A DNA stretch of 64,000 nt from an uncultured Thermodesulfobacteriota bacterium (GTDB lineage: Bacteria > Desulfobacterota > GWC2-55-46 > JADFVP01). The stretch covers positions 244 through 64,243 of the forward strand of contig CAYYJQ010000009.1 of NCBI GenBank assembly GCA_964472295.1, written 5' to 3'. The stretch's first letter is position 1. Every line of letters starts with the position of its first letter. Positions 6,797 to 28,687 of this stretch are shown here, one piece after another. Position numbers and translations under genes: made by a program. The notes below the pieces were generated by a model. That model saw only the letters and a program-made list of their open reading frames with translations, was not told the DNA's origin and did no database searches.

Positions 6797-7639
6797 TTAT
6801 CTCAGGAGTTGGAGCGCGCTCTGCGGCAGTGTGTTGGCCTGCGCGAGCACGGATATGCCGGCCTGAACCATAATCTGATTCTTCGTGAATGTGGCCGTCT
6901 CTGTGGCGAAGTCCGCGTCCCTTACCCTGGACTCGGCGGCCTGGAAGTTGGTGAATGTAACCTGGAGGTTGGAAATGGCCACGTTTAGCCTGTTGGTGGT
7001 GGCGCCGTATATGGCCCGCGCGCTGTTTACCCTTGCAAGGGCCGCGCTTACGGAATCAAGGGCCGCAAGGGCTCCCGTTACGCTGGAAAGGGCCCCGGAC
7101 TGGAGGCTGAGGCCCACGTTGCCCGTGGCGCCCGCGCTCGTAAGGGCCACGAGGCTTACGCTGAGCTGGTTGTCCGTTGAGTTCTTGAAACCAATGAACA
7201 TGGTCATCGAGGTGATGGACCCGTTCAGGAGTTTGTAACCGCCGAACTCCGTTGTCTGCGCTATACGGTCAATCTCGTTTATGAGTTTGTCATACTCATC
7301 CTTGTAAAAGCCCCTTGTGCTGCTATCAAGGGTTCCCTGTGCCGCGCTCGCGGCAAGTTCGCCCATCCTTGTGATGATGTTAGTGACCTGCTCGGCGGCC
7401 TTGTCGCTGATTTCCATGGCGCTCACGCCGTCATTGACGTTGCGTATGGCGGCCTGAATCATCCGCGACTGGCTCCGGAGCTGGTCGGCGCGGGCAAGGC
7501 CCGCGGCGTCGTCCGCCGAACTATTCACCCTGTGGCCCGAAGACAGCCTCTGAACGCTTATCTTCAACTGGGCGTTTGACGTGCTGAGGTTCTGCTGGGC
7601 CAGTAGTGACGCAATATTTGTGTTGATTACCAATGCCAT
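6797..7639 (-). CDS. fliC: Flagellin.
   Basis: 280 aa with a conserved flagellin N-terminus (MALVINTNIASLLAQQNLSTSNAQL...) and C-terminus (...NQIMVQAGISVLAQANTLPQSALQLLR). A perfect sigma-28 promoter lies upstream. Confidence 0.9.
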   Translation of the reverse strand: MALVINTNIASLLAQQNLSTSNAQLKISVQRLSSGHRVNSSADDAAGLARADQLRSQSRMIQAAIRNVNDGVSAMEISDKAAEQVTNIITRMGELAASAAQGTLDSSTRGFYKDEYDKLINEIDRIAQTTEFGGYKLLNGSITSMTMFIGFKNSTDNQLSVSLVALTSAGATGNVGLSLQSGALSSVTGALAALDSVSAALARVNSARAIYGATTNRLNVAISNLQVTFTNFQAAESRVRDADFATETATFTKNQIMVQAGISVLAQANTLPQSALQLLR

Positions 7640-7796: not shown

Positions 7797-8402
7797 TTAC
7801 ATATCTTTTCTGTAAAAGACCTTTTCCATCATATCCCTCAGGAGCGGCCCAAGCTCATACTCGAGCATGTCGGCAAGGAGTATGTTGTCGCGCGAGATAC
7901 GGGCGTCACGCAGGCCGGAGAGGTTTCTGAGAATCTTCTCGTAATACTCGCCTGGGTCATGCCGGAAGACGTCCATGCCATAGGAGAGGCCGCACTTGTA
8001 GAGCGAATCCATTGTCTTTACCACCTCTCCCGTGGACTCGATGATGGAGGCAAGGGTCTTGTCCACCTTGAAGGAACCGCGCCTGAGAGAATCAGAGGCG
8101 CTCTCCAGAAGGCCCTCTATGAAGGCGATGTACTCGTTCACCGTGTATATGCCCTTGAGGACGAGATGGTCCACGCCCTCGGTAAAGAGCCTCAATTCGC
8201 CAACGTTGATAACAGGCTCGCAGAGTTCGACGGCCTCCTTCCACGCATAACCCCTCCTGTCGCCGTCCACCCAGAGTTCCTGTATGAAGCGCCTGAGGGG
8301 CCGAAGGTCTGTCTCCACGGCGTTTATCACATCGCCAATGGTCGAGGCCGGGCCAAGGCCCGTGAGTTCGAGTCTCGCGTCATCAAGGTATACTTCCGTC
8401 AT
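7797..8402 (-). CDS. Hypothetical protein between maf and fliC. No family recognised.
   Basis: I chose the start at MTEVYLDD because a strong SD (AAAGGAG) lies 7 nt upstream of that ATG. The ORF track extends it by 34 aa through a Cys-rich segment (CAVCPLKILCGRECPVKKTC) that is probably 5' UTR. Confidence 0.45.
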   Translation of the reverse strand: MTEVYLDDARLELTGLGPASTIGDVINAVETDLRPLRRFIQELWVDGDRRGYAWKEAVELCEPVINVGELRLFTEGVDHLVLKGIYTVNEYIAFIEGLLESASDSLRRGSFKVDKTLASIIESTGEVVKTMDSLYKCGLSYGMDVFRHDPGEYYEKILRNLSGLRDARISRDNILLADMLEYELGPLLRDMMEKVFYRKDM

Positions 8403-8570
8403 GAGGGGCTCCTTTATGCATGTTTTTTTAACCGGGCACTCTCGCCCGCAGAGTATTTTCAGGGGACAAACAGCACACCGTCCCTTTAAGCCATTTTTTG
8501 TCATCCACGGCTGACTCCCTGCTCCCGCGGGTGTTATTCAGGGGAAAAGGGCCATTCATCCCCAATTCAA

Positions 8571-10490
8571 TCACTTCTCGTTAACAACGGCGCGCCCGCC
8601 GCTGTCCGGGCCGTCAACGAGCCCGCGCGCCACTTCGAGTCCGTGACCTATCATGGGCTTAAAGAGAAGGCACATCTTCCTTACCTCGCTGTAAGTGCGA
8701 ATTGTCCTCTCAATGTCCTTCTCGAACTGTATCCTCGCGGACCCGTCCTCTTCCTCGCGGAGGTAGCCCTTCAGGTCATAGGTATACTCCACAAGCGCCT
8801 CCCAGAGGAACGAGACCTTGAGGGCGGCTTTGAAAAGTTTTTTTTCCTTTTTCCTTATCCTCTCTATGGGTCCTGAGAGTTCAAGAGAGAGTCCTTTTTC
8901 GAGAAAGGCCCTCTTAAGCCTTCCCGCCTCTCTGATAATCTCCGAGGAGAGGTTCAGGACAAGCCCCACGTGTTTTTCAAGTCCCCTGAAGGCCTCCAGA
9001 AGACCGCCCGCGTTGACATCGGGGCGCACGGCCCCGGCCTCGTCCAGTATCTTCTCGACTGGAACCGGCCCCTTCAAGTGTTGCTCAATGACCTCGGCAA
9101 GGGGCAGGTGCTCCATGCCCTTTATATAAGCGCCGCCCTCTGTTGAGTTGTAGACGCGGAGGCCGGGAAACTGCTCCTTCAGAAGGACCATGTACCTCTC
9201 GAACCACTGGTGAAATGTCACCCAGTCGTATTTACTGGCAACGGGCCGCCCGTCAAGGCCTGTAAGCCACTGGAGTTTATGGGTCATGGTGCGCCGGTGG
9301 CCTGAGATGTAGTGTTCCCGCACCAGAATAAGCCCCTTCTCCTCGTCTATCTCCACCCTCTGCCTGTCATAGACGCCTCCCTCGGCGTGGCTCTGTCCGT
9401 TCTCAAAGGCAAGGTCCTGACCAATGAAGATAATGGGGTCGCAACCGAATGTGACGCCCATGTCGAACATGGCCGTGGTTACGGAGCCGCCTATGGATAC
9501 AAAGGAACTGCTCCCCCAGAGCCCGGCCTGCTCAAGGCTGAGGGCGATGTAGGGGCTGTAGAAGATGAACTTTCCACGGGCCCGTCTTCTGAACATCTCA
9601 GGGTGAGAGACCTCGGAGAGTATGAGGCGTATATTCTCATCGGCCACGCCTCCGTCGAAGTACTCCTTGAGGTCCACCTTTTCTCCGGCTATGACGGCGT
9701 GGGGGGTAACGCCGTACTTGAGGAGGCTCTTGTAGGCCGTGATGGCCGATACGATAAAGGCCCTGTCCTTTATGCCGGAAAGTAGGGCGGCGTTCTTTTT
9801 TAGCGACGGTCCGGCCCCGACTATAACAAGGGGCACGCCCCTGAGCCTGTTATTCAGGACGCCGACAGATGGATAGGCGGCGAAATTCTCGAGGTTTGCG
9901 AAGTAGTTCTTCAGCCAGTCAAGGCGCGAGTCTATCTCTGTCCTTATGCCGACCTTCTGGGACGTATGGGCGTTCTCGACCTTTATGACAAAGTTACGGA
10001 GTTCCTCGGGAAAGGCAAGGCTGTAGGCAAGGGTATGATAGCCGAGGATATTATCGAGTCCATCGGTAAAACGCTGGACCCAGGCGATGAAGGGGCCTAT
10101 GTAGTTGGCAAGGAATACTCCGGGCAGGGAGAGTTCACGGCTCAGGTCAACTTCCATGAGCACGCCCTTTAGTATCTCCATGGAGGGCTCAAGGACAAAG
10201 ACCTTCTTCATGCCCTTCTTGAGGAGCGTACGGAGGAGATAGGCGCAGCCAAGACCAAAGATGACAACGCAGTCAGGTTTTTTCTTGAGTATTTCCCCTG
10301 CCTGAACCTCGGCCTCTTTCCATGGGGCGTACTGGCTGTTAAATAAACGGCCCCTGTACGAGAGGACTGGTTCGCCCTTCTTTGATACGCCAAGTTTAAC
10401 GGCCTTCTCAATATCAAAGGCCCTCAGCCTCTCGGCAAGGATGCTGTCTTTTTTCGCGATTGCCGTGATGTTTTTTTCAAATATTTTCAT
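8571..10490 (-). CDS. maf: Motility accessory factor (Maf) family protein. Maf proteins act as flagellin nonulosonic-acid glycosyltransferases in Campylobacter and Helicobacter.
   Basis: 639 aa. The central region matches the Maf/DUF115 (MptE-like) fold, with LNNRLRGVPLVIVGAGPSLKKN... and GDxxAAxN-type segments. It is co-located with the pse genes and flagellin. I take the start as the ATG at 10490, with GGAG 6 nt upstream; the track began at a TTG. Confidence 0.6.
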   Translation of the reverse strand: MKIFEKNITAIAKKDSILAERLRAFDIEKAVKLGVSKKGEPVLSYRGRLFNSQYAPWKEAEVQAGEILKKKPDCVVIFGLGCAYLLRTLLKKGMKKVFVLEPSMEILKGVLMEVDLSRELSLPGVFLANYIGPFIAWVQRFTDGLDNILGYHTLAYSLAFPEELRNFVIKVENAHTSQKVGIRTEIDSRLDWLKNYFANLENFAAYPSVGVLNNRLRGVPLVIVGAGPSLKKNAALLSGIKDRAFIVSAITAYKSLLKYGVTPHAVIAGEKVDLKEYFDGGVADENIRLILSEVSHPEMFRRRARGKFIFYSPYIALSLEQAGLWGSSSFVSIGGSVTTAMFDMGVTFGCDPIIFIGQDLAFENGQSHAEGGVYDRQRVEIDEEKGLILVREHYISGHRRTMTHKLQWLTGLDGRPVASKYDWVTFHQWFERYMVLLKEQFPGLRVYNSTEGGAYIKGMEHLPLAEVIEQHLKGPVPVEKILDEAGAVRPDVNAGGLLEAFRGLEKHVGLVLNLSSEIIREAGRLKRAFLEKGLSLELSGPIERIRKKEKKLFKAALKVSFLWEALVEYTYDLKGYLREEEDGSARIQFEKDIERTIRTYSEVRKMCLLFKPMIGHGLEVARGLVDGPDSGGRAVVNEK

Positions 10491-10805
10491 CAATCACTCC
10501 AACATTTTTTTACCGCGACTCAATGCCCCCCTCTTTTAAGCCGCCACAGAGCCAATAAAAAATATCTTCAATCTCTCCGGCATTTTTTTATCCGCGGCTC
10601 AAAGGCCGGTTCCTTTAAGCCGCGCAAGAGCGGGTAAAAAATCTTGTCAATCACTCCAACATTTTTTTATCCGCGGCTCGATGCCCCCCTCTTTTAAGCC
10701 GCCCCAGAGCGGGTAAAAAATCTCGTCAATCACTCCTATGTTTTTTTGCCCGCACCTTGAAGGTCAGTTCGTTTACGCCGCGCCAGACCCAGTAAGAGGT
10801 GTCGT
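10491..10805. repeat. Tandem direct repeat of period 78-79 bp, 3 full copies plus a degenerate 4th. It starts at the maf start codon and extends into the 3' end of the upstream GH57-like gene.
   Basis: The unit is caatcactcc-aacattttttta-ccgcggctc-Natgcccccctcttttaagccgcc-cagagcgggtaaaaaatct-gt. Copies begin at 10491, 10569, 10648 and 10727. Each carries T7-8 and A6-7 runs, and R1 and R3 carry C7 runs. The SD-like GGAGTGATTGA of maf is reiterated in every unit. Confidence 0.8.
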
Positions 10806-12840
10806 CAATCTCCCCGGCGCTGTGGTAGAGACGGAGAAAAAAAGTCGAGCCCCTCTCCCTGTAATCAACCATGGGCACGGGCAGTGCGTCTCCATGGTCC
10901 GAACTTATGGTAATCTTCTTCTCGTTATCTCCCATGCTCACCCAGCCCTCCGTGGCCCCGAGACACGACGAGGCCGAGATGGCCTGACTTACGGGGCTTG
11001 AGTGCGATACGGCGTGCCCCTGGAGCATGAACCTCTCGGGACGGGTCCCGCCGTTCACGGTCTCGTAGTAGAGTTGGTCTCTCTGAAAGGCCTCTGGCAT
11101 GAGCGTGAAGATACCGAGCCGCAGGGAAGAGGCCATGAGCCCCCGAAGCCTTAGCCTGTAGTGAAGGGTAAAGGAGCTATTTGAAAATGGGATGCGATAG
11201 GTCTTCTCGATTATTCCAATGGGCGACTCAATAGCGGCGAAGACGGATACGCCGTCATTGTCTTCAGTAACAGTGGGCGCAACGGGCAGGAGGTCCGTGG
11301 TCTTCCGGCCATGGCGGCTCGTCTGTATGAGGTGACCCGAGAAAAAGTCCGCGCCAAGGTCAATGGACTCGTAGTGTCCGTGGCTGATGGTGCCAATGAG
11401 GGGTTCTGGTGAGACAAGGGGAAAAGAGGCCGAACCAAGGGCAAGCCCCCTGTCCTTGAGGAGTTCAATCTCCACGGCCCCGGTGCATACCCTTAGCCGG
11501 GTCTCCGTCTCCTCTGTCTGGACCATGGGCATTAGCCCGGACCTCATTACAGCGCCTGCGCCGATATAGGGGCCGGCAAGGCAGAGGAGGTTGGCCTCCT
11601 GGTCTCTCCCGTTCATATCCTCATCTTCAGTCCCCTCTCCTGTTACTTCCACCAGTGCGTCCGTAAGGCCCGCTTCTCTCATGCGCCGCTCCGTCTCCAT
11701 TGAGAGCCAGCCCATGCCCTCGTTAAAGCGGGCGAATTTTTCATCCGTGGTATTTGTCCTGAAGTCCGAGGCCCAGAGTTCCGTGAGCGTCTCGCGCATC
11801 CTGTCCCAATCCCCTTCGCCTATTACCCCCGCCTTTCCAAGTCCGCGAAACCTCCTGTAGAGCCCCCTGCACCTCGCGTTTATATGGGCGCTGTCGCGGC
11901 CCGTGACCGACCACCTCAGGGGGTTGTACTTTTCCTGCTTCTTGCAGACAATGGGCGTCTCCACGGATTCGAGGCAAAGGGCCGGGGCCTCCCTGTCACT
12001 CTCAAACTTCTTGATAATCTCCACGGGCCGCATGAGTTCAAGCCCCCTCTCGCACCTTATGAGTTCAAGTATTCGCCTTATCCTCGAAAAGTCGCCGCGC
12101 CCGGTCCCGCCCCTTCCAGGGGTAAAGTCAAATATCTCGGCGTCATTGGAGTAGGCCGTGAAGGCGCGGTCCTCGGCGCGGCTGTAATGGGAGCGCAGGT
12201 ACTCCATGTATTCGTCCATGGGGACCTCGCCGCGCGCGGCGCGGGCGAACTTCTGAAAACCAATGGAATGAGACCAGAGGAGCCCTACTTCATCGCCGGG
12301 AACGAGCCCGGCGGCCCTCCGGGGCCTGTAGAGGAGGTCCTTCTCAAAACCGTTATGACGCGCCGAGTTGTTCCAGTCCATGATAATGGCCCTGTAGCCC
12401 GCTTCTTTATATAGTCCCGTAAGTCCTGCTGAATAGGTCTGCTCGTTCACAAGGGCAATCCCGGGGCGTCTTCCAAGTATCTCCTCATAGCCCCTGCACC
12501 CAAGTTCAAGGTTCCACCTGTTCACCTCTGCCGGGATAAGGGGCATGATGCACTGGGCATGGCCAGAGCCGATAAAGTCGAGGGCGCCCTCGGCCCAGAG
12601 TTCGCGGAGGCGGAGCGTAAAGGCGGGGTCAAGGTCCCGCACCCTCTGAAGGGTCCAGGCCGTCATCTCAATGGCCACGGCCAGCCCGGACTCGGCAAGG
12701 CGAAGTATGGGCCAGTAGCAACTCTTTATTACAGAGGGAAAGTCGCGGCTGTCTATGAGCGAGAAGGCGAGATTGCAGTGAAAGAGGGCATAGACCGAGA
12801 GCCCTGGCAGGGGCTTCTCCTCAAAGGAATTTTTTCTCAC
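10726..12840 (-). CDS. Large (704 aa) GH57-like member of the glycoside-hydrolase/deacetylase superfamily. Function unknown; presumably sugar processing in the glycosylation island.
   Basis: The N-terminal ~300 aa resembles the GH57 catalytic barrel, with a FIGSGHAQCIMPLIP block like the GH57 'yyHpIlPL' motif. The canonical HxHQP motif is replaced by FHCNLAF. The C-terminal half is unrecognised. The stop codon lies inside the tandem repeat. Confidence 0.35.
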   Translation of the reverse strand: MRKNSFEEKPLPGLSVYALFHCNLAFSLIDSRDFPSVIKSCYWPILRLAESGLAVAIEMTAWTLQRVRDLDPAFTLRLRELWAEGALDFIGSGHAQCIMPLIPAEVNRWNLELGCRGYEEILGRRPGIALVNEQTYSAGLTGLYKEAGYRAIIMDWNNSARHNGFEKDLLYRPRRAAGLVPGDEVGLLWSHSIGFQKFARAARGEVPMDEYMEYLRSHYSRAEDRAFTAYSNDAEIFDFTPGRGGTGRGDFSRIRRILELIRCERGLELMRPVEIIKKFESDREAPALCLESVETPIVCKKQEKYNPLRWSVTGRDSAHINARCRGLYRRFRGLGKAGVIGEGDWDRMRETLTELWASDFRTNTTDEKFARFNEGMGWLSMETERRMREAGLTDALVEVTGEGTEDEDMNGRDQEANLLCLAGPYIGAGAVMRSGLMPMVQTEETETRLRVCTGAVEIELLKDRGLALGSASFPLVSPEPLIGTISHGHYESIDLGADFFSGHLIQTSRHGRKTTDLLPVAPTVTEDNDGVSVFAAIESPIGIIEKTYRIPFSNSSFTLHYRLRLRGLMASSLRLGIFTLMPEAFQRDQLYYETVNGGTRPERFMLQGHAVSHSSPVSQAISASSCLGATEGWVSMGDNEKKITISSDHGDALPVPMVDYRERGSTFFLRLYHSAGEIDDTSYWVWRGVNELTFKVRAKKHRSD

Positions 12841-14459
12841 GGATACCTCTCCTTGAGTCCGAGGATGTCGTACTTTACGAACATGGCCGAGGTCTCAAGG
12901 AGGACGTTCATGAAGATTGGCCGCTTTCTCCGCCATACATCGCCTATGTAACGGAGCGCGCGCATGGGGTCTGACCTTATGAGGTGATGGGTCCTGTCGG
13001 CCTCGACAATGGTCTCTATGTACTCCGGGGTAAAGTCCCGCGTCTTTATATTGGGTTTTACCACCTCCACGCGGTCGTAACTGAACCCATCGGCAAAGAG
13101 GCCCTCGTCGCGACACCTCTCGAATAGTTCACTTCCCGGTAAAGGCGTGGCTATATAGACCTCTCTGCTGTCAAAGAGGCCGCTGTAGTTAGCCATGTAG
13201 AGAGAGCGCCGAATGTCATCTTTTGTCTCTCCCGGCAGGCCTATGACAAAGGTCCCTGTAAGGCGAACGCCCTTATTGCGGGCATAGCGCAGGACCTCCA
13301 TGGCGCGGTCGAGTTTAAGGGGTTTTTTGACTATATTTGTAAGTACCTCCTGAACCCCGGACTCGATGGCAAAGCCCATGGAGACGCATCCCATCTCAAC
13401 GAGTTCATCTATCAGTTCCTCGTCCATGCACCATAGGGCAAGGACCATGAAGTGTATCTCAAGGTCATAGCCCCGGCGTCTGAACCCGCGGCAGAACTCC
13501 TTTGCCCGCTTCCTGTCGTGGGTGAAGTTATCGTCAATTATCATGAGTTTTTTTATGCCGTAATTCTCGACAAGAAAATCTATCTCGCGAAAGACCTCTT
13601 CAAGGCAACGCGCCCGGAACTTGCGTCCCATGGTCCTGTGCACGGAGCAGAAGACGCACCTTCCGGCGCAGCCCCGAGTGGTGAGCACAGTGGGCATGGC
13701 CTGAGGCCAGCCCCATGTCACGGCCCGGGGCTCGTAGTTTTTGGAGTATTTTTCGTATGGAAAGAGGTGCCACGCCGGAAAGGGCAGGGCATCGAGGTCG
13801 TTTATGAAATCGCCCCTCGGGTTAACGGTAACACGCCCGTCCTCCCGCCAGACAAGGCCCGGCACAGAGGCATAGGCAGGGCCTTTTGCCGCGGCCCCGG
13901 CCTCTTCCATGTCTTTTTTCCCTTCTCCATCCTTACCCTCTTTGCACGTGCAGTTGTCGCAGGACTCTCCGTCGCCGCACCTGCCATCTTCTCTCTCAAT
14001 GGCGTCTATCAGGGCTGGAAGGGACTCCTCGGCCTCGCCCATGAGGACAAAATCAATGGCAGGGTTCTCCATGACCTCTTCGGGCATGGATGTGGGGTGG
14101 TTTCCGCCGACTACTACAGGGGAATCTGGGTAGATGGATTTCACGATACGGGCCGTCTCGTTCATGGAGCCCACCATTACTGAAAAGTTACAACTTATTC
14201 CAACCATATCTGGCTCAAAATCCCTTATCCTCTTTGAGACCTCGTCCATGGGAATACCCACCTCCACATAGTTGTCCCTTAGCGGCGCGTCCCTGTCGAG
14301 CCCCTCGGTCTGGCAGTCCAGAATGGCCACCTCACGGCCCCTCTTTTCAAGGACAGCCGCAAGGTACATTATGCCCATTGGGGGGTATACTATCCTCTGC
14401 CCTGATGTGGCTATCCTCATGCCCGGCTGTATAAGGAGTATCTTCTCTATTTTCTTCAT
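12837..14459 (-). CDS. B12-binding radical-SAM enzyme; probably a methyltransferase/rearrangement enzyme acting on the flagellin sugar.
   Basis: An N-terminal cobalamin-binding Rossmann domain (ILLIQPGMRIATSGQRIVYPPMGIMYLAAVLEKRG) precedes a radical-SAM CxxxCxxC cluster (CAGRCVFCSV). A Cys-rich linker (CGDGESCDNCTC) separates them. The start is at MKKIEKIL, with AAGGGA 6 nt upstream. Confidence 0.75.
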   Translation of the reverse strand: MKKIEKILLIQPGMRIATSGQRIVYPPMGIMYLAAVLEKRGREVAILDCQTEGLDRDAPLRDNYVEVGIPMDEVSKRIRDFEPDMVGISCNFSVMVGSMNETARIVKSIYPDSPVVVGGNHPTSMPEEVMENPAIDFVLMGEAEESLPALIDAIEREDGRCGDGESCDNCTCKEGKDGEGKKDMEEAGAAAKGPAYASVPGLVWREDGRVTVNPRGDFINDLDALPFPAWHLFPYEKYSKNYEPRAVTWGWPQAMPTVLTTRGCAGRCVFCSVHRTMGRKFRARCLEEVFREIDFLVENYGIKKLMIIDDNFTHDRKRAKEFCRGFRRRGYDLEIHFMVLALWCMDEELIDELVEMGCVSMGFAIESGVQEVLTNIVKKPLKLDRAMEVLRYARNKGVRLTGTFVIGLPGETKDDIRRSLYMANYSGLFDSREVYIATPLPGSELFERCRDEGLFADGFSYDRVEVVKPNIKTRDFTPEYIETIVEADRTHHLIRSDPMRALRYIGDVWRRKRPIFMNVLLETSAMFVKYDILGLKERYP

Positions 14460-14469
14460 GAAATATCCC

Positions 14470-15720
14470 TTATTGGACCATCCTGAGGCGTCCCTCGACC
14501 GTGAAATCAACGCCCTCGATGGCCTCGCGCGCCCTCATGGAGGCCTCTTCGGGCGTAACGCCCGTTGTAATGACCATGCCCGCCCTTCCGGGGTGAGATA
14601 CCACGGGGCCAAGGGTATCCCCTGGCTTCACGTTTATCTCCATCTCCTCAAGGCCGGGCATCATTTTTATATGCGGCGGTATGCGAATGGAGCGCACGAC
14701 TCCTGGCCCGGGGAACCAGAACCTCTGCGATACAAAGCGCGATTTCCATGGCCTGTAATCCCCTGCCCTTACCTTGACGCCAAGGGCAAGGAGGATTGCC
14801 GCCTCCACAATATCAACGCCCAATGAGAGGGGTATGGTATGGGTGCAGAAAAACCCGCCGCTTAGCCTCGGGGCGGCCTCTATGACCACGGGGCCGCAAT
14901 CGCCCATCACGATGTCGCCCTTTATAGTCCAGTCGTCAATACCAAGGGCCCTCCCTACCCTGCCTATTACCTTGTCCACGGCCTTGCGCTCATCATCTGT
15001 GAGGCGCGCCGGAAGGTCCCCTCCGTTCTCTATCACATAGGGCGAGAACCGCTCTATATACTCGTAATTTCTCTCCGAGAGCCCCGGCGTGGCCACCACC
15101 CCGCCCGTGAGCACGGACTCCGTACTTATCTGTAGCCCCTCCACCCATTCCTCCGCCATTACGCGGCCAGAGGGCGAGTTTTTCTCTGCCTCGAAGAAGG
15201 CCCACGAGGGGTCAACGCCCCCGGTAAGACGTATGACGCCGCGCGCGCCCCGGCTGTCCACTGGTTTTATTACAAGGGTTTTCTTTCGCTCAAAGATAAT
15301 TTTCTTTAGTTCCATGGGTCCCATTACCATGGAGTACCACGGCACTGGGACCCCGGCGCCTCTCATGGCCTCTTTCATGAGGAATTTATCGGACGCAAGG
15401 CGCGCCGACTCGATTGAGGGGCCGGGTAGACCGAGGCCCTCTGCCACGGTAGCCACTGTAAGGGGCACGTCAGCGGCGGCGGAGAGAACGCCGTCAATGG
15501 GACTTACACTGTGCATGGCCCGTGCGAGCCTCAGGGACTTTTCCGCGTCATAGGTGCTCGAAAGCATGGCCTCATGGGCAAGGGCAAGGCCCGGGGCCTT
15601 TTCATCGCCGTCAGAGACGATTACATGGAGCCCCATGGCAATGGCCTTCTCAATGATGGGCAGGGCCTCTCTTCCGCCGGAAATTATGAGTATGGTCTTT
15701 CCCGCAACGCTCATGGACAT
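14470..15720 (-). CDS. ATP-grasp family ligase.
   Basis: 416 aa with a pre-ATP-grasp N-domain and an ATP-grasp central domain (LASDKFLMKEAMRGAGVPVPWY...KTLVIKPVDSRGARGV...AEEWVEGLQISTESV). Confidence 0.7.
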   Translation of the reverse strand: MSMSVAGKTILIISGGREALPIIEKAIAMGLHVIVSDGDEKAPGLALAHEAMLSSTYDAEKSLRLARAMHSVSPIDGVLSAAADVPLTVATVAEGLGLPGPSIESARLASDKFLMKEAMRGAGVPVPWYSMVMGPMELKKIIFERKKTLVIKPVDSRGARGVIRLTGGVDPSWAFFEAEKNSPSGRVMAEEWVEGLQISTESVLTGGVVATPGLSERNYEYIERFSPYVIENGGDLPARLTDDERKAVDKVIGRVGRALGIDDWTIKGDIVMGDCGPVVIEAAPRLSGGFFCTHTIPLSLGVDIVEAAILLALGVKVRAGDYRPWKSRFVSQRFWFPGPGVVRSIRIPPHIKMMPGLEEMEINVKPGDTLGPVVSHPGRAGMVITTGVTPEEASMRAREAIEGVDFTVEGRLRMVQ

Positions 15721-16757
15721 ACGATCACCTTTACGGCCCCTGAGGCCTCCTTGTGAGAGGCGATTGAGAACCCTTCCATAATGTCTTCAAGGGCCACCCT
15801 GTGTGTTATGAGCCCCCTTGCCCGCGCCCTGCCCTCTGCAAAGAGGCCGAGGGCCCGCACAAAGTCTTCCCTGCTGTATCGCTGTGCCCCGCGCACCTCG
15901 ATTTCCTTCTCTGTAAGGTCCTTGAGGTTCATCTCGGGCGTCCTGTAATGAACGCCTGAGAGGACCAATACCCCGCCCGGCAAAAGGGCCTCGATGGCCG
16001 TTGTAATGGAGGCGCTCCCAAAGCCCCCGGAAGTATCAAAAACAATGTCAAAGGGTTTATGGTGTGAAAGGGGGCCGCATCCTGCAGGGTCAAGGGCCTC
16101 ATCGGCGCCCATCTTCAGGGCAATCTCCCTCTGAAAGGGGTACTTTCCAAGGACCGAGACCATTGACGCCCCTATTATGGAGAGGGCCCTTGTGATGAGA
16201 AGCCCAAGGGTTCCACAGCCTATGACAAGGGCCCTCTTTCGGGCCACTGGACCGCCCATGGACACTGCGTGAAGTGCCGCCCCAAGGGGCTCGACAAGGA
16301 CGGCCTCTTCAGGGTCAAGATTGGTCGGGAGTTCAAAGACATTGGAAGAAGGCACGGTAACAAACTCGGCAAAGCCTCCCGGGCGGTCGAAACTTACAAA
16401 AGAGCCCTTTTTGCAGAGATTTGCGCGCCCCGAAGCGCAGGCATGACAACTCCCACAGGGCACAAGGGGAGATACCACGACCCCTGCGCCCCTCTTTATA
16501 CCCCTGACCCCCTCTCCCAGTTCTTCCACCACGCCGCCTATCTCATGGCCTGCCCAGAACCTCGGCACAGGCGGGTCGCAATGAAAGATATTAAGGTCTG
16601 AGCCGCATATGCCGCAGGCCCTTACGCGCAGAAGGACCTCTCCGGTCGATGGCAGCGTGACCGCGCGCTCTCTTACAACGAGCCTCCCCGGCCCATCGAA
16701 GACAGCGGCCCTAAGCCCCGGCGGCCTTTCTGATATTTTCTCTAAAGGCATGTTCAT
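15711..16757 (-). CDS. Zinc-dependent alcohol dehydrogenase (MDR family; threonine/sorbitol dehydrogenase-like).
   Basis: Catalytic and structural Zn motifs are present (RACGICGSDLNIFH; GHEIGGVVEELG; a CGSCHAC cluster). A Rossmann GxGxxG follows. I chose the start at MNMPLEK, where AGGAGG lies 9 nt upstream. Confidence 0.75.
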   Translation of the reverse strand: MNMPLEKISERPPGLRAAVFDGPGRLVVRERAVTLPSTGEVLLRVRACGICGSDLNIFHCDPPVPRFWAGHEIGGVVEELGEGVRGIKRGAGVVVSPLVPCGSCHACASGRANLCKKGSFVSFDRPGGFAEFVTVPSSNVFELPTNLDPEEAVLVEPLGAALHAVSMGGPVARKRALVIGCGTLGLLITRALSIIGASMVSVLGKYPFQREIALKMGADEALDPAGCGPLSHHKPFDIVFDTSGGFGSASITTAIEALLPGGVLVLSGVHYRTPEMNLKDLTEKEIEVRGAQRYSREDFVRALGLFAEGRARARGLITHRVALEDIMEGFSIASHKEASGAVKVIVCP

Positions 16758-17403
16758 GGCCAGGCACCTCCTTCCAGTCAGAGAGGAACTTCTCAAGGTC
16801 CATGTCAGTCATTGTGTTAAGGAGCATCTTCTCAAGGACTATGAAAGGCACCGTGGCTATATGCACCCCAGCCCTTGCCACCTCCACAATCTGATGGGGG
16901 TCCCGTATGCTCGCGGCTATGACCTCTGTCTTGAGGTCATGGTGAGAGAAGGTCTCCATTAGTTCGCGCACAAGGCCAAGGCCGTTATACCCCCTGTCCT
17001 CGAGCCTGCCGATAAAGGGGCTTATATAATCAGCGCCCGCCATTGCCGCAAGGAGGGCCTGCGTGGGGGAGAATATGAGCGTGAGGTTGGTCTTCACGGA
17101 CTCGCCGCGAAGGAGCGTAAGGGCCTCCATTCCCGCGGGGTTTGCCGGTAGTTTTACTACAACGTTGCGGGAAACCTCGGCAAGGACACGCGCCTGTCCG
17201 GCCATGTCTTCGGGAGACCTTGCCGTTACCTCGAGGCTTACGGGATGGGGATAGACGACCTCGCATATCTCGGAAGCGACCTCGATAAAGTCCCTCTTCT
17301 CTCTCGCGATGATAGAGGGGTTCGTGGTGACGCCGCTCAGGACCCCCCAGGCTTTTGCCTTTTTTATCTCTTTAATATCAGCGGTATCGAGAAATAACCT
17401 CAT
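16711..17403 (-). CDS. Transaldolase-family protein of the fructose-6-phosphate aldolase / TalC type.
   Basis: MRLFLDTADIKEIKKAKAWGVLSGVTTNPSI is the FSA/TalC signature; the protein is ~230 aa. I chose the start at MRLFLD, with GAGGAGG upstream. Confidence 0.75.
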   Translation of the reverse strand: MRLFLDTADIKEIKKAKAWGVLSGVTTNPSIIAREKRDFIEVASEICEVVYPHPVSLEVTARSPEDMAGQARVLAEVSRNVVVKLPANPAGMEALTLLRGESVKTNLTLIFSPTQALLAAMAGADYISPFIGRLEDRGYNGLGLVRELMETFSHHDLKTEVIAASIRDPHQIVEVARAGVHIATVPFIVLEKMLLNTMTDMDLEKFLSDWKEVPGHEHAFRENIRKAAGA

Positions 17404-17430
17404 AATCGTCCTCCTCTTTTTAGGTGTCAC

Positions 17431-18642
17431 TTAACTGCCTTGCATAGACCTCTCAAGCCCCACGGCCCCGTTGCCAAAGTTGCCAAAGTTAATAGATACC
17501 CTGCCCCCTTTCCTGCCAAGCGCTGTTATGGCCGCGTTTATATCTTGAAGTTCAAAGGAACGTCCCTCGGCAGTATCGAGTTCCACAAGGCCCTGCTCAT
17601 GAAGCCCCAGTATCCATGGTATGGCAAGAGAGGGGTTTGACGATCCGTATAGCGAGCCCAGGAGTCTCTTCTCAAGGTGAAAGTCCACGGCAGGGAGGGT
17701 GAGGTCCTGAAGGGGGTGGGGCGAGCCCACCATGACTACCGTGCCTCCCCTTCGAGTCGCTTCCAGTGAAGACCGCACCGTCTCACCAGTGGCAACACAG
17801 TCAAATGCAATGTCCACGCCAATGCCGCCTGTAAGTTGCAATATCTCGTTCCTATCAATGCGTTCCGCGTAGTGGTCAACGCCATTCTTATTCCACCTGC
17901 TCCTCTCGCGCTCAACGAGCATGACCATGCCAGCGCCCCTGTGCCTCAGTGCCTCCACAACCGCGCGCCCAACGTTCCCCCCGCCAACAACAAGTGCCCT
18001 CTCACCCCCTCTCATGTATGGAGCGGCTGTGCGGAAGACAGCCCCAAAGGCAGTTACAACAGGGCAGCCCGCAAGGGCGGCCTCTTCTGGACCAAGGCCA
18101 TCCGGGACCTTGACACAGCCCGTCCTGTATACGACGGTATACTCACTGAAGGACGATACGCCGTTAAAATGGAAAATTACGCCCCCGTCTTCGCCCCCTC
18201 CGCTCCCTTTGGCCCCTTTGCCCCCCTTGGCCCCCTTGGCCCCCTTGCCAAGTCCGCCATCTTTAAACCTTGTTGTCCCGTCGGGAAGAAGCCCCCTGCC
18301 CCGTGGCCAGGCAATGGAACTGCATAATTGAGTCTCGCCTCGGGCGCAAAAGTAGCACCTCCCGCAGAAGGCCGCCCAACTGAGGGCCACGCGCTGGCCC
18401 GGCCTTAGGTCATGGACACCAGCGCCTGTCTCCACCACCGTGCCGACTCCCTCGTGGCCCAGGACAAGGGGCATCTCATACCTTGTGTGGCCGCTAATGG
18501 CGTTGAGGTCGCTCCTGCAGAGCCCGGCTGTCTCCATCTTCACAAGGACCTCTTCAGGTCCCGGCGGGGCGAGAGTAATCTCTCTAACCTCAAGGGGCGT
18601 GTCTTTTCTTGTGAGCACTGCGGCCCTTGTCTCTATGGCCAA
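17431..18642 (-). CDS. Zinc-dependent alcohol dehydrogenase (MDR family) carrying an in-frame Gly-Lys-rich insertion (GKGAKGAKGGKGAKGSGGGEDGG).
   Basis: LCRSDLNAISGH...GHEGVGTV...CGRCYFCARGETQLC are ADH Zn motifs. The insertion at 18170-18260 is encoded by the same GGGGCAAGGGGC repeat seen in intergenic tracts. Confidence 0.7.
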   Translation of the reverse strand: MAIETRAAVLTRKDTPLEVREITLAPPGPEEVLVKMETAGLCRSDLNAISGHTRYEMPLVLGHEGVGTVVETGAGVHDLRPGQRVALSWAAFCGRCYFCARGETQLCSSIAWPRGRGLLPDGTTRFKDGGLGKGAKGAKGGKGAKGSGGGEDGGVIFHFNGVSSFSEYTVVYRTGCVKVPDGLGPEEAALAGCPVVTAFGAVFRTAAPYMRGGERALVVGGGNVGRAVVEALRHRGAGMVMLVERERSRWNKNGVDHYAERIDRNEILQLTGGIGVDIAFDCVATGETVRSSLEATRRGGTVVMVGSPHPLQDLTLPAVDFHLEKRLLGSLYGSSNPSLAIPWILGLHEQGLVELDTAEGRSFELQDINAAITALGRKGGRVSINFGNFGNGAVGLERSMQGS

Positions 18643-18645
18643 GGT

Positions 18646-19995
18646 TCAGGACTCCTTTCTTGCCGTAACGTTATAGGAGGCCGCCGAGAAGCATGGGTCG
18701 CGTTCGGTGGAAAGTCCGAAATCCAGTATATCCCAACGTATAATCTCGCACGTACCCTCGATGAGATCGTAAAAACCATCTCTCAAGAGCGCGTCTTTCA
18801 GTCTCGCTCCTATCTCACGGCCCCTGACATAGGTAATGTAGTTCTTCTCCTCAAGGGTGAAGCCCGCTTCCTTGAGCATGGGAAGCATTCGCGCCTCTCC
18901 GAGGGCCTGAATGTGCCAGGGCCATATGGCGTCTTCAATCAGTCTTGCTTCATCTTCGCCCCTGCGTTCAGGCGGGCATACCCTGTAGGGATAGTAGTCT
19001 TCTTCAGGCGTACTCAAGACAAGGAGCCCGCCGGGCCGAAGTAGACGGCGGGCATGGGCCAAGATGCTCTCAGGGTCAGGGGCGTGCTCTATTACGTCCA
19101 TGAGAAAGACCACGTCAAAGTAGCCTTCTCTATCAACAAGGCCTTTGGCCTCGCCGCAGATGGCGGTGAGATTTTGCGCAAGGGGAGACCACGTCTTTCT
19201 TACAAAATCCGCGGCCCCTTGTGATTTATCGAGATACACGACCTCTTCGGCTGTCCTTGAGAGAAGAAAGGCCCCGTACCCAAGCCCACCTCCTATATCG
19301 AGAACCTTCCGGCCCCGTGCCTTTTCCATGCCAGAGGCATACTTCATGAATATCTCGAGGTCATGGCCAAAGCCGCCAAGAAGGCCGAGGTTCGGCCTCT
19401 CGCCAGAGACCTTGAGCCCCCCTTTATCAAGGGAACTCATGACCCTTGAGATGCTTTTGAGGGTAGAGCGTATCTCCTGAATATCACTTAGCCAGGGCAG
19501 GGTGAACTCCGGGGTCCTCTCTGCATCGAGGGAATAGGCTATCTCCTTTGGAGGAAGGCCGGCCCTGAGGAGCGACGCGTTTATTGCCACGGCCTCTTGT
19601 GCCACAATGGCCCCGAAGAGATAGGCGTTCGCCCGAAAGGTATTGAAGGGAAAGAAGACCCTCGCATAGCGATGGGCGGCCTTGTCCAGAAGAAATGCCC
19701 TTGAGGCGGGCCTGGTGATTCCGCCGTAATACTCCTCGTCAAGGACATGGACAGCCTGAAACCCGAAATCAGCGATTATAGGGGCAAGGACCTTTCGTTG
19801 TTTCTCAAGTATGAGCAGTTCAATATTATCACCCCGGCCCCGGGGGCCGCCCATGGCAAGGCTACCGCCGCCCACGGCCACCTTCGCGGCCCCAGATGTT
19901 GCCGCCGCCTCTCTGGCCAGCCTATCAAATACATACTCGATGAGCGGTCTCGCCAACGGCGCTGACTCTGGGAGCATTATCAGGGTTCCTCTCAT
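18646..19995 (-). CDS. Two-domain protein: an unknown N-terminal domain followed by a C-terminal class-I SAM-dependent methyltransferase.
   Basis: Motif I VLDIGGGLGYGAFLLS and post-I DVVFLMDVIEHAPDP are present. 449 aa. Confidence 0.65.
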   Translation of the reverse strand: MRGTLIMLPESAPLARPLIEYVFDRLAREAAATSGAAKVAVGGGSLAMGGPRGRGDNIELLILEKQRKVLAPIIADFGFQAVHVLDEEYYGGITRPASRAFLLDKAAHRYARVFFPFNTFRANAYLFGAIVAQEAVAINASLLRAGLPPKEIAYSLDAERTPEFTLPWLSDIQEIRSTLKSISRVMSSLDKGGLKVSGERPNLGLLGGFGHDLEIFMKYASGMEKARGRKVLDIGGGLGYGAFLLSRTAEEVVYLDKSQGAADFVRKTWSPLAQNLTAICGEAKGLVDREGYFDVVFLMDVIEHAPDPESILAHARRLLRPGGLLVLSTPEEDYYPYRVCPPERRGEDEARLIEDAIWPWHIQALGEARMLPMLKEAGFTLEEKNYITYVRGREIGARLKDALLRDGFYDLIEGTCEIIRWDILDFGLSTERDPCFSAASYNVTARKES

Positions 19996-23034: not shown

Positions 23035-23038
23035 GGCA

Positions 23039-24352: not shown

Positions 24353-24417
24353 TGGGTAATCCTCCTATTACTTGTCCTTGAGCGCGTCCGGGTGCCTAAT
24401 GACCGGACCGTAAGCCC

Positions 24418-28640: not shown

Positions 28641-28672
28641 GGGCAATCCTCCTTTTCTCCCATACTTGTAAT

Positions 28673-28687
28673 GCAACTTGTATGCCA
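28673..28687 (-). promoter_or_regulatory. Sigma-54 promoter of the pseB-led glycosylation operon.
   Basis: The minus strand reads TGGCATACAAGTTGCA, which is TGGCAC-N5-TTGCA with one mismatch. It ends ~33 nt upstream of the pseB ATG. Confidence 0.55.

Follow-up and report, generated by a model that had tools for sequence, protein, structure and literature searches.

The sfmABCDE operon of S. oneidensis encodes NeuB, a TPP enzyme, an SDR, an MTase and the ATP-grasp protein SfmE, and its product is a mono-N-acetyl pseudaminic acid (Pse) bearing a further C9H16O7, C10H18O7 or C11H20O7 (PMC3765264), that is, an O-methylated C8-type polyhydroxy moiety. By the arithmetic of the present analysis, these formulae equal a hexuronate plus C2 and 2H, minus H2O, plus one to three CH2 groups; they also fit a methylated octose. 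The outer moiety is readily lost in the ion source, which would suit a glycosidic link too (PMC3765264). C. jejuni makes 5-N-(2,3-di-O-methylglyceroyl)-Pse, for which Cj1295 and Cj1296/7 are needed; Cj1295 is a DUF2172/DUF4910 aminopeptidase-like protein whose role in Pse modification has been hypothesised. The FlaB flagellin of T. denticola carries a 2-methoxy-4,5,6-trihydroxy-hexanoyl pseudaminic-type acid, the acyl group of which corresponds to an O-methylated, reduced 2-keto-3-deoxygluconate, a product of KduI/KduD-type chemistry, and the surface sugar of Tannerella forsythia is Pse5Am7Gra. The Pse derivatives of the latter two organisms are N-acylated with O-methylated or polyhydroxy acids, of the kind that gene cassettes of the KduI/SDR/MTase or aldolase/ADH/MTase type could yield.

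The locus described here lies in the window, the stretch of 64,000 nucleotides analysed as a whole. Three ORFs at positions 10726–15720 of its minus strand encode an LAL-type ATP-grasp carboxylate-amine ligase (14470–15720; a 416-aa ORF, called as 414 aa in the metagenome), a class-B-type B12-binding radical-SAM enzyme (12837–14510; a 557-aa ORF) and a GH57-like protein of 704 aa (GH57L; 10726–12840). The domain assignments of the initial annotation are borne out by Pfam: LAL_C2 (66.2 bits), ATP-grasp_3 and ATPgrasp_N in the ligase, B12-binding (94.7 bits) and Radical_SAM (79.6 bits) in the second protein, and Glyco_hydro_57 at residues 33–281 of GH57L (45.1 bits; cut-off 21.2). Because full-length homologues with 45–67% identity occur in syntenic loci, these are real genes and not chance ORFs. 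They form the distal part of a tightly packed operon, entirely on the minus strand, in the order pseB-pseC-neuB-cytidylyltransferase ... ATP-grasp, radical-SAM, GH57L ... maf-flagellin, with pseB/pseC/neuB on one side and maf, a 235-aa ORF, the flagellin gene and fliD on the other; the proposed link to flagellin glycosylation is therefore well founded at this locus.

The pseudaminic-acid core of the operon comprises seven minus-strand genes (21029–28688): PseB (27594–28688; NCBIfam, 489 bits) and PseC (26459–27673; 459 bits), both over the cut-off, a NeuB/PseI-type synthase (25422–26711), a CTP_transf_3 cytidylyltransferase (24418–25440), a class-III aminotransferase (23039–24352), a GFO/IDH/MocA oxidoreductase (22009–23034) and a PseG-like protein (21029–22024) that keeps the GxGHxxR histidine motif. 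No PseH-type N-acetyltransferase is encoded in the operon, and no acetyltransferase family, whether GNAT or hexapeptide, was found among 22 representative unassigned small ORFs of related loci (judged from the best 25 of the 34 families matched); a pseH gene may lie in another part of the genome. At the flagellar end, also on the minus strand, lies a Maf-type flagellin nonulosonic-acid transferase with an MptE-like domain (8571–10493; Pfam, 110.7 bits), which scores 111 bits against the NCBIfam PseD domain, under the cut-off. The spacer between GH57L and maf is filled by a 79-bp tandem repeat of 3.8 copies (10490–10787) that duplicates the junction of the GH57L stop and the maf start. Downstream of maf, the 235-aa ORF (7797–8504) is conserved in 29 loci; its homologues, of about 200 aa, give faint DUF8042/TP0873_N matches, and it sits where GlfM, encoded beside Maf-2 (bioRxiv 10.1101/2023.12.03.569772), sits. 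The flagellin (6797–7639), identified from the ORF translation and an orthologue annotated Flagellin_N/C in syntenic loci, is presumed to accept the modified sugar.

Between the core and the three ORFs lies a variable, lineage-specific "acid-building/tailoring" cassette on the minus strand (15711–21032; Pfam and NCBIfam), consisting of a Zn-ADH (15711–16796), a fructose-6-phosphate-aldolase-type (FSA) aldolase (16711–17430; TIGR00875, 255 bits, cut-off 246), a second Zn-ADH (17431–18642) and two SAM methyltransferases (18646–19995 and 19992–21032). In other loci its place is taken by KduI with an SDR, by a split transketolase with an SDR or by an IlvB-like TPP enzyme with an SDR, the last found beside GH57L in nine loci, such that the small-molecule genes next to the ATP-grasp/GH57L pair are swapped between loci as cassettes. 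The resemblance to S. oneidensis MR-1 is close: both sfm and the window encode a nonulosonate synthase, a C–C-forming enzyme, a ketoreductase, a methyltransferase and an LAL-type ATP-grasp protein, and both lie beside Maf and flagellin (sfmABCDE adjoins maf and glfM) without a recognisable PseH. On the other hand, the FSA-type aldolase, the two Zn-ADHs and the B12-radical-SAM enzyme of the window replace the TPP enzyme and SDR of sfm, and GH57L has not been reported in the literature for the sfm operon.

The reading favoured here, to which a probability of roughly 40% is assigned, is that the module N-acylates Pse with a tailored polyhydroxy acid derived from a sugar acid, replacing the missing PseH, after which Maf O-glycosylates flagellin. 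The source of the acid would be a hexuronate, remodelled by aldehyde- or ketone-directed enzymes (the FSA aldolase in the window; KduI, transketolase or the IlvB-like TPP enzyme elsewhere) and subsequently by ketoreductases, O-methyltransferases and, in the lineage of the window, the cobalamin radical-SAM enzyme. The ATP-grasp ligase would convert the carboxylate of this polyhydroxy/methoxy acid into an acyl phosphate, from which it would make an amide with a free amine of the Pse scaffold. Its likeliest target would be the 4-amine made by PseC (N7 of Pse), and hence the ligase may stand in for PseH. Like the Cj1295 system of C. jejuni, such a pathway would replace an N-acetyl group of Pse on flagellin with an O-methylated hydroxy acid; unlike C. 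jejuni, the window contains no homologue of Cj1295 or of an AAC(3)-type N-acetyltransferase, which we take to be the type of Cj1296/7, and the amide would be made by the ATP-grasp enzyme.

The nearest PDB entries to the ligase are 4dim and the L-amino-acid ligase 3vot, and ligating an acid onto the sugar, as had been suggested, is its most probable job; as also stated earlier, neither it nor the radical-SAM enzyme belongs to a canonical Pse or Leg pathway. The amide could instead be made in the opposite sense, the ligase coupling an amino-polyol, produced by the class-III aminotransferase and the oxidoreductase, to a carboxylate of the sugar, either C1 of the nonulosonate or that of a uronate. 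An aminotransferase of this class (aldehyde/omega-amine type) is conserved together with a GFO or an aldo-keto reductase beside the cytidylyltransferase, FSA-type aldolases handle dihydroxyacetone, and the Cj1438 amidoligase of the C. jejuni capsule, which uses serinol phosphate, provides a precedent. However, the aminotransferase and the oxidoreductase are associated with the NeuB core and not with the cassette, and the two together are missing from several loci that keep ATP-grasp and GH57L; in the minimal locus L034, for example, GFO is present and the class-III aminotransferase is absent. As the known flagellar derivatives are N-acylated, carboxylate amidation is considered quite unlikely.

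The radical-SAM enzyme probably starts near position 14459, giving 540 aa as in the metagenome gene call, and contains a lineage-specific low-complexity insert and a CxxxCxxC motif beginning at residue 281. It shares the layout of a B12-binding domain followed by the CxxxCxxC core with class-B cobalamin radical-SAM methyltransferases (the Sden_1168/PhpK P-methylases, TokK and TsrM). Its best NCBIfam match is the Sden_1168 P-methyltransferase family (248 bits against an equivalog cut-off of 575), and AprD4 scores 104 bits against 500; these scores lie far below the cut-offs, as do those for every cofactor family, so that it does not fall into a cofactor-biosynthesis family. No phosphonate genes lie near it, and no description of a radical-SAM enzyme that tailors nonulosonic acids was found in the literature. 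The enzyme occurs in about one quarter of the related loci, where it co-occurs with the FSA-aldolase/two-ADH cassette; it is thus an accessory component that travels with one of several interchangeable cassettes, and its target is more likely to be the acyl chain than the sugar itself, for which C-methylation had been put forward. Most likely it would C-methylate an unactivated carbon of that chain. Methylation is not assured, since the nearest solved core is that of the diol dehydratase AprD4 (6fd2; E 3.4e-23). A possible, if doubtful, alternative is accordingly that it acts as an AprD4-like radical 1,2-diol dehydratase which, with a Zn-dehydrogenase, deoxygenates the polyol chain: the two flanking dehydrogenases match AprD4/AprD3 logic, the known flagellar acyl chains have a deoxy position, and in the FSA cassette the enzyme stands in place of the KduI route. 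The similarity to AprD4 is nevertheless confined to the radical-SAM core, the N-terminal B12-binding domain is a strong match and can be aligned with TokK's cobalamin domain, and the class-B methyltransferase family outscores AprD4.

In GH57L, a (beta/alpha)7 barrel at the N terminus is accompanied by a helical region and, at the C terminus, by a beta-sandwich; no paper describing the GH57L family was found in the literature. The two motifs quoted in the initial annotation, FHCNLAF (residues 20–26) and FIGSGHAQCIMPLIP (residues 89–103), are both present. The first contains H21 and N23 and represents an altered CSR1, from which a non-hydrolytic or otherwise altered function, such as deacetylation or transfer, had been suggested. 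The altered motif is no argument for a non-hydrolytic enzyme, because the GH57 Glu nucleophile and Asp acid/base are kept invariantly: in an alignment of 34 sequences, from which the invariant columns were taken, the predicted nucleophile E133 (codon 12442–12444) and D233 of the predicted acid/base motif D233/E235 (12136–12144) are conserved throughout the family; W356, S358, D359 and R361 are also among the key residues. The closest characterised sequence relative is the GH57 4-alpha-glucanotransferase of T. litoralis (TLGT; PDB 1K1W/1K1X), with a profile match at E 2.9e-12; E133 and D233 correspond to E123 and D214, the next Glu is conserved, and both proteins combine a barrel with a beta-sandwich. 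They differ in that identity is about 12%, CSR1 reads H-C-N-L-A in place of H-x-H-Q-P, the C-terminal domain of GH57L has invariant acidic residues of its own, and the context is nonulosonic-acid tailoring as opposed to alpha-glucan metabolism. In Foldseek, the best matches to the AF2 model (pLDDT 88.8, pTM 0.89) are GH38 mannosidases and TLGT, the best global superposition being with GH38 alpha-mannosidases (Bl_Man38A, PDB 7UFR; TM 0.66–0.68 normalised to the query), which covers the barrel, the helical and the beta domains. By contrast, GH38 gives no sequence-level match, and neither its His/Asp zinc site nor its Asp nucleophile can be recognised in GH57L, whose catalytic residues are of the GH57 type.

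The similarity to TLGT and the score over the Pfam GH57 threshold would also be expected of an ordinary glycogen or maltodextrin GH57 enzyme placed in the operon by chance. This is highly improbable: its start and stop codons overlap those of its operon neighbours, CSR1 is altered, no glycogen genes lie nearby, and its linkage to nonulosonic-acid genes and ATP-grasp is kept across more than 12 phyla; an ordinary alpha-glucan enzyme is thus close to refuted, and GH57L stands outside the characterised alpha-glucan clade. The 84 non-redundant related loci span more than 12 bacterial and archaeal phyla, including Thermodesulfobacteriota, Acidobacteriota, Omnitrophota, Verrucomicrobiota, Planctomycetia, Actinomycetota, Patescibacteria, Dehalococcoidia, Vampirovibrionales and three archaeal groups. 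Every GH57L locus belongs to a nonulosonic-acid cluster, with NeuB and a cytidylyltransferase within 10 kb wherever the flank suffices. These clusters serve flagella or capsules; therefore, the tie to nonulosonic-acid tailoring holds generally but a flagellin-specific one does not, given the capsule-type and archaeal loci. In 74 of the 84 loci, GH57L is preceded on its own strand by an ATP-grasp gene (its immediate neighbour in 40), seven of the ten exceptions are cut by contig ends, and two independently picked ATP-grasp homologues likewise adjoin GH57L. The conserved unit is accordingly this pair, and the three genes together are not a fixed one.

Within the flagellar clade, ATP-grasp identity is 63.6% between loci with the same cassette and 36.9% between those with different cassettes, and that of GH57L is 58.4% and 51.7%, respectively. 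This unequal fall implies that the ligase changes with the acid, whereas the substrate of GH57L stays constant. In the favoured model, GH57L would act either ahead of the ligation step or directly behind it, its Glu/Asp pair cutting the alpha-anomeric bond of a sugar-acid precursor, for which a UDP-hexuronate is the most plausible candidate, and thereby freeing the anomeric carbon as the reducing-end aldehyde needed by the cassette enzymes. Genes for nucleotide-sugar 6-dehydrogenase (Ugd) are immediate neighbours of GH57L in four unrelated lineages, and in one of these loci (L041) a GalU-like gene is present too; their presence in just 4 of 84 loci weakens the UDP-hexuronate reading. Cleavage by GH57L is the least certain step of the model, and, with UDP release from the hexosamine already covered by the PseG-like protein, the Pse pathway formally needs no glycosidic step, which counts against this role.

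A rather doubtful alternative is that GH57L is a de-N-acetylase that acts on the Pse scaffold, taking off the N5-acetyl derived from GlcNAc or a different N-acyl substituent, after which ATP-grasp or an acyl-CoA N-acyltransferase adds a new acyl group, an "acyl swap" following the logic of LpxC and then LpxD. The (beta/alpha)7 barrel superfamily includes CE4 deacetylases, and the evolution of GH57L independently of the acid cassette implies recognition of a constant scaffold. Moreover, GH57L nearly always has an N-acylating enzyme as its partner, and these partners are of two unrelated chemistries: in addition to ATP-grasp, a Rosetta-stone protein (P0366; loci L095/L096) fuses it to an AAC(3)-type N-acetyltransferase, presumably the type of Cj1296/7, with pseB/pseC, an AMP-binding ligase, KduI, an SDR and a Cj1295-family gene as neighbours; the last gene also adjoins GH57L in L078. 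In C. jejuni, the unusual acyl group is on N5, and prior cleavage of the N5-acetyl was proposed. The fusion and the tight pairing with the ligase suit a de-N-acetylase at least as well as they suit the favoured model. Yet what is invariant in GH57L is the GH57 glycosidase pair with the motifs next to it, and no Asp-His-His metal site is among these residues (H21 is the sole conserved histidine of the N-terminal domain); the CE4-type metal motif is absent, and no deacetylase appears among the best 50 structural matches. In addition, a free amine is already present because no PseH is encoded, and some GH57L loci have, in addition, a PIG-L deacetylase gene (L075) or a candidate amidohydrolase resembling Cj1295 (L078 and L096).

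An intact set of retaining-glycosidase residues would equally serve a second nucleotide-sugar hydrolase or transglycosylase whose substrate is the scaffold, hexosamine or nonulosonate, as in a PseG-like release of UDP from a bulky N-acylated 6-deoxy-hexosamine or in glycosyl addition. The anomeric centre of UDP-beta-L sugars is alpha-D-like, an N-acylating gene followed by GH57L repeats the order of PseH and PseG, fusions of which are known and would be paralleled by the N-acetyltransferase–GH57L fusion, and the S. oneidensis outer moiety fragments as a glycoside does. This role is nonetheless unlikely, since a PseG-like gene with GxGHxxR, present here and in most related loci, already covers release of UDP from the hexosamine and leaves no hydrolytic scaffold step unassigned. 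Cleavage of a sugar-acid precursor remains the preferred role. GH57L represents a large unstudied enzyme family encoded nearly always beside the presumed decoration-attaching enzyme, and this family may help to explain how bacteria have diversified their surface sugars.

The three open reading frames proposed at positions 10726–15720 in the initial annotation were recovered by ORF translation and Pfam searching with exact coordinates on the minus strand: a LAL-type ATP-grasp protein of 416 aa (14470–15720), a B12-binding radical-SAM protein of 557 aa (12837–14510; 540 aa in the public gene call), and a 704-aa protein of the glycoside hydrolase family 57 (GH57) fold (10726–12840; Pfam GH57), hereafter GH57L. 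They are part of one tightly packed operon amid flagellar genes; flgK, flgL, csrA, and fliW lie on its upstream side. The operon begins with PseB, PseC, a NeuB-type synthase, and a CTP_transf_3 cytidylyltransferase; continues with a class-III aminotransferase, a GFO/IDH/MocA oxidoreductase, a PseG-like protein, two SAM methyltransferases, a Zn-ADH, a fructose-6-phosphate aldolase (FSA)-type aldolase, and a second Zn-ADH; and ends with the ATP-grasp protein, the radical-SAM protein, GH57L, Maf, a conserved ORF of ~200 aa, flagellin, and fliD. PseB and PseC pass their NCBIfam equivalog models (TIGR03589, 489 bits against a cut-off of 407.75; TIGR03588, 459 bits against 423.5). The PseG-like protein scores 106 bits with the PseG model (cut-off 153.55), the synthase scores 294 bits with PseI (cut-off 340) and 341 bits with NeuB (cut-off 399.65), and the sole match of the cytidylyltransferase is the CTP_transf_3 domain. 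No acetyltransferase ORF that might represent a PseH-type N-acetyltransferase is present within the contiguous operon of the window. Furthermore, acetyltransferase families, including GNAT and hexapeptide types, are absent from the best 25 of the 34 families matched by 22 representative unassigned small ORFs of related loci, and a cluster-encoded PseH was thus not found among these ORFs; a PseH gene could lie elsewhere in the genome. The region had no match in a megablast search against plasmids. The contig originates from a JGI metagenome, and its nearest named relatives are Thermodesulfobacteriota MAGs.

Two other features of the region were observed. A block comprising an SpsF-like cytidylyltransferase, a HemL-like class-III aminotransferase, an oxidoreductase (GFO/IDH/MocA or aldo-keto reductase), and a PseG-like protein is located at 21029–25440 in the window and recurs in the related loci L004, L008, and L093; it adjoins NeuB in many related loci and may, for instance, provide an additional amination step acting on the sugar or on the acyl chain. 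The ORF directly 3′ of maf (7797–8504, minus strand) is kept in 29 related loci at ~200 aa, and its true start is therefore probably an internal Met near residue 35. It had no Pfam match, and its homologs showed only faint matches to DUF8042/TP0873_N. It occupies the same position as Shewanella GlfM, a Maf-2 specificity factor, but is twice as long.

The window proteins and alternative cassette proteins were mapped onto 80 genomic loci plus metagenomic contigs. In these loci, GH57L always lies within a nonulosonic-acid locus, with NeuB, a cytidylyltransferase, PseB/PseC, and a PseG-like protein nearby. Downstream of GH57L are maf, the small ORF, and flagellin in the Thermodesulfobacteriota/“Deltaproteobacteria” clade, and flippase, capsule-synthesis, or glycosyltransferase genes in other phyla and archaea. 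Among 84 non-redundant loci, 74 carry a co-oriented ATP-grasp gene ahead of GH57L, directly adjacent in 40 and otherwise one gene apart (KduI, SDR, radical-SAM, etc.); seven of the ten loci without a preceding ATP-grasp gene are cut by contig ends. GH57L also adjoins two ATP-grasp homologs that were picked independently.

The genes upstream of this pair form interchangeable cassettes: the window type (FSA aldolase, two Zn-ADHs, a 449-aa methyltransferase, and the B12-radical-SAM protein); a KduI/IolB-type isomerase with one or more SDRs; a split transketolase with an SDR and sometimes a sulfotransferase, an APS kinase, or a different B12-radical-SAM protein; and an IlvB-like TPP enzyme with an SDR. 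A minimal locus (L034) contains only PseB, PseC, GFO, NeuB, the cytidylyltransferase, a PseG-like protein, ATP-grasp, GH57L, Maf, the small ORF, and flagellins. Between loci of the flagellar clade, the ATP-grasp proteins are 63.6% identical when the cassette is shared and 36.9% identical when it differs, whereas the corresponding values for GH57L are 58.4% and 51.7%. The identity of the ligase thus tracks the cassette and that of GH57L does not, which suggests that the ligase follows the variable small molecule and GH57L something constant. The four cassette lead enzymes (aldolase, transketolase, IlvB-like, and KduI) act on an aldehyde or an α-hydroxy-carbonyl, and each is followed by a ketoreductase. 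In four unrelated lineages, nucleotide-sugar 6-dehydrogenase genes directly adjoin GH57L, once together with a GalU-like gene.

Some loci carry additional genes. A sulfotransferase is added in L006, L035, L061, L080, and L094, the last of which also has an APS kinase and a CysQ-like phosphatase, implying that the appended moiety is sulfated in some versions. Two or three ATP-grasp paralogs lie upstream of a single GH57L in L030, L032, L039, L058, L074, L075 (also with a PIG-L deacetylase and a WbqC-like protein), and L088, which suggests that more than one amide bond is formed or that both N5 and N7 are acylated. In Acidobacteriota-type loci (L052, L055, L059, L070, L076, L077, L087, and L093), a conserved protein of ~580 aa with no Pfam match is encoded directly 3′ of GH57L; a LIC12162-family protein takes its place in L094. 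The ~580-aa protein may be the nonulosonate transferase of non-flagellar systems.

Relatives of GH57L occur in at least 523 species-level genomes, and the family comprises at least 711 clusters at 50% identity (E ≤ 1e-30) and 3887 clusters at 90% identity (E ≤ 1e-20), annotated as “hypothetical” or “glycoside hydrolase family 57”; a search with a proteobacterial GH57L for a homolog in a cultured model organism returned metagenomic proteins only. GH57L matches Pfam PF03065 over residues 33–281 (45.1 bits, cut-off 21.2), as do all of its listed homologs. A PDB search gave a marginal match with the single sequence (E 0.25) and a clear one with the family profile (E 2.9e-12). Its AlphaFold (AF2) model (pLDDT 88.8, pTM 0.89) superposes on GH57 and GH38 structures as a (β/α)7 barrel with a Foldseek probability of 1.00, and the best structural matches are GH38 α-mannosidases and GH57 enzymes. 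In an alignment of 34 diverse sequences, E133-Q134, D233-x-E235, and W356-x-S-D359-x-R361 are invariant, and H21 and N23 are nearly so (at least 90% conserved). Single-sequence and profile comparisons align E133 with the nucleophile (E123) and D233 with the acid/base (D214) of TLGT, the GH57 4-α-glucanotransferase of Thermococcus litoralis, and the nucleophiles of branching enzymes fall in the same alignment column as E133. Both motifs singled out in the initial annotation are present (FHCNLAF at residues 20–26 and FIGSGHAQCIMPLIP at residues 89–103), and conserved sequence region 1 indeed reads F-H21-C-N23-L-A instead of the GH57 consensus H-x-H-Q-P. The motif observation therefore stands, and the initial annotation is confirmed in what it observed and supported in part in its interpretation; the suggestion of a non-hydrolytic enzyme finds no support in the remainder of the active site, where E133 and D233 are intact.

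Two readings of GH57L were set aside. The genomic context argues against an α-glucan role, and a stray glycogen enzyme was rejected because of synteny. A role for GH57L as a replacement for PseG was also rejected, since the window and most other loci have a PseG-like gene of their own that carries the catalytic-His motif. The invariant Lys and Arg residues, considered as evidence of a nucleotide substrate, were dropped in part because K197 and R200 align with a Lys and an Arg of TLGT.

GH57L is also connected with N-acylation through a gene fusion. In one relative (P0366, 957 aa), GH57L and an AAC(3)-type N-acetyltransferase domain (128 bits) form a single polypeptide, and the neighboring genes encode PseC, PseB, an AMP-binding (adenylating) enzyme, a short KduI, an SDR, and a DUF4910/DUF2172/HTH_47 protein. 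The fusion and the ATP-grasp pairing together indicate that GH57L is coupled to N-acylation by two unrelated chemistries. From its Pfam domains, the DUF4910/DUF2172/HTH_47 protein appears to belong to the Cj1295 family. In Campylobacter jejuni, Cj1295 is required for 5-N-(2,3-di-O-methylglyceroyl)-pseudaminic acid (Pse), and its neighbor Cj1296/7 is an N-acetyltransferase. To our knowledge, no gene other than Cj1295 has been linked by genetics to an unusual N-acyl group of Pse. In a Gemmatimonadetes MAG, too, GH57L has a Cj1295-like gene 1 kb away; thus, GH57L appears to share neighborhoods with a Cj1295-type gene.

In the main rival explanation, GH57L acts as a de-N-acetylase and so makes an acyl swap possible; both the pairing and the AAC(3) fusion would be very well accounted for by such an activity. 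However, neither the active-site residues nor the fold neighbors of GH57L support it: the Asp-His-His metal triad of CE4/NodB enzymes is not found, the N-terminal domain has a single conserved His (H21) and no H-x-x-x-H motif in the family alignment, GH57L has no Pfam deacetylase match, and no deacetylase is among its top 50 fold matches. The absence of PseH from the operon likewise lends this rival no support.

The ATP-grasp protein matches LAL_C2 (66.2 bits), ATP-grasp_3 (39.3 bits), and ATPgrasp_N (37.2 bits) in Pfam, and residues 7–397 align with the LAL BL00235 (PDB 3vot; E 1.2e-10). The radical-SAM protein combines an N-terminal B12-binding domain (94.7 bits) with a Radical_SAM domain (79.6 bits) and carries its CxxxCxxC motif as CAGRCVFC from residue 281. 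All 29 NCBIfam families that it matched score below their cut-offs (best, 248 bits against 575), and none of the characterized equivalogs (Sden_1168/PhpK, HpnR, TokK-like, and others) is reached. Judging from its sequence, C-methylation is favored by the strong B12 domain and the closest family; the main alternative is an AprD4-like deoxygenation enzyme.

A chemical precedent is the sfmABCDE module of Shewanella oneidensis, encoding NeuB, a TPP enzyme, an SDR, a methyltransferase, and an ATP-grasp protein (PMC3765264). The flagellin glycan of this species, a mono-N-acetyl Pse (274 Da) bearing an O-methylated increment of C9H16O7, C10H18O7, or C11H20O7 that is labile in the ion source, requires sfmABCDE, and loss of the ATP-grasp gene leads to a smaller mass shift (PMC3765264). 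We infer that the increments correspond to an amide-linked (–H2O) hexuronate that has gained a C2 unit, has had its ketone reduced, and bears one to three methyls; a methylated octose has the same formula. Compared by class, all functional classes of the module are shared with the window next to maf, the aldolase and Zn-ADHs standing where the sfm module has the TPP enzyme and SDR. A literature search on S. oneidensis SO_3266–SO_3268 gave no match. Treponema denticola FlaB is described as carrying 2-methoxy-4,5,6-trihydroxy-hexanoyl-Pse, and Tannerella forsythia has Pse5Am7Gra. The methoxy-trihydroxy-hexanoyl group is equivalent to a 2-O-methyl, 2-reduced 2-keto-3-deoxygluconate, and 2-keto-3-deoxygluconate is a KduI/KduD-type product. 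The papers searched identify no enzymes that install glyceroyl, di-O-methylglyceroyl, or methoxy-trihydroxy-hexanoyl groups. Nor did they yield anything relevant that connects flagellin or pseudaminic, legionaminic, or nonulosonic acids with enzymes of the GH57 or radical-SAM type.

In the favored model, to which we assign a probability of 0.4, the three enzymes would act jointly. The ATP-grasp protein would take the place of PseH and N-acylate the Pse scaffold with a cassette-made acid derived from a sugar acid, and the radical-SAM protein would tailor the acyl chain, more likely than not by C-methylation. GH57L, using the GH57 catalytic pair, would liberate the anomeric carbon of the precursor of this sugar acid, for which a UDP-hexuronate is the most plausible candidate, and thereby make available the aldehyde that the cassette enzymes need. 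It is also tempting to speculate, although the odds are somewhat against it, that GH57L founds a new functional branch of GH57/GH38 in bacteria and archaea, cytoplasmic and aiding N-acylating partners, that contributes to the N-acyl diversity of Pse and legionaminic acid (Leg) either by nucleotide-sugar-acid cleavage or by metal-independent de-N-acetylation.

The DNA of the region contains several repeats. A 79-bp tandem repeat (10490–10787; 3.8 copies, 77–82% matches) fills the 232-bp spacer from the GH57L stop to the maf start; in the syntenic locus L001, this spacer is only 25 bp. Every unit ends with GGAGTGATTGA, which is also the sequence of the last five codons of GH57L (…AGG AGT GAT TGA) and of the ribosome-binding site and start context of maf, so that the junction, in which stop and start overlap, seems to have been multiplied. 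The RNA folds better than shuffled sequences (z = −3.8), and a regulatory role is possible, given the GGA motif in each unit and the presence of csrA and fliW in the same region. In addition, there are three lineage-specific low-complexity stretches of 8–9-bp DNA repeats. At 18189–18247, the 403-aa Zn-ADH has a Gly/Lys-rich insert (GKGAKGAKGGKGAKGSGGG); at 25261–25357, a stretch rich in Gly, Ala, and Glu falls within the long 5′ extension of the cytidylyltransferase ORF; and at ~13900–14000, the radical-SAM protein has an insert rich in Cys, Gly, Glu, and Lys. Given that cytidylyltransferase homologs are ~260 aa, the 5′ extension is probably not translated.

Islands for flagellin glycosylation that combine Pse genes with Maf, and in Shewanella also with an ATP-grasp gene, are already known. 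By contrast, the GH57L family with its near-obligate pairing with N-acylating enzymes in bacteria and archaea, the modular cassette architecture, and the presence of B12-radical-SAM enzymes in nonulosonic-acid tailoring appear to be undescribed, the radical-SAM protein reported here being the first in the searched literature to be linked to such tailoring. Pse and Leg on flagella, S-layers, and capsules bear many N-acyl groups, among them glyceroyl, di-O-methylglyceroyl, methoxy-trihydroxy-hexanoyl, and, in Shewanella, a C8–C11 moiety; filament assembly, immune recognition, and phage binding are all influenced by such groups. The widespread two-gene core of ATP-grasp and GH57L, together with its swappable cassettes, provides candidates for the enzymes that install hydroxy-acyl groups, and the modules may find use in glyco-engineered flagellins with designer sialic-acid-like sugars. 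If the proposal is true, either activity of GH57L, nucleotide-sugar-acid cleavage or de-N-acetylation, would be new for the GH57/GH38 fold, and the missing enzymes behind the flagellar glycans of S. oneidensis, T. denticola, and C. jejuni would be supplied.
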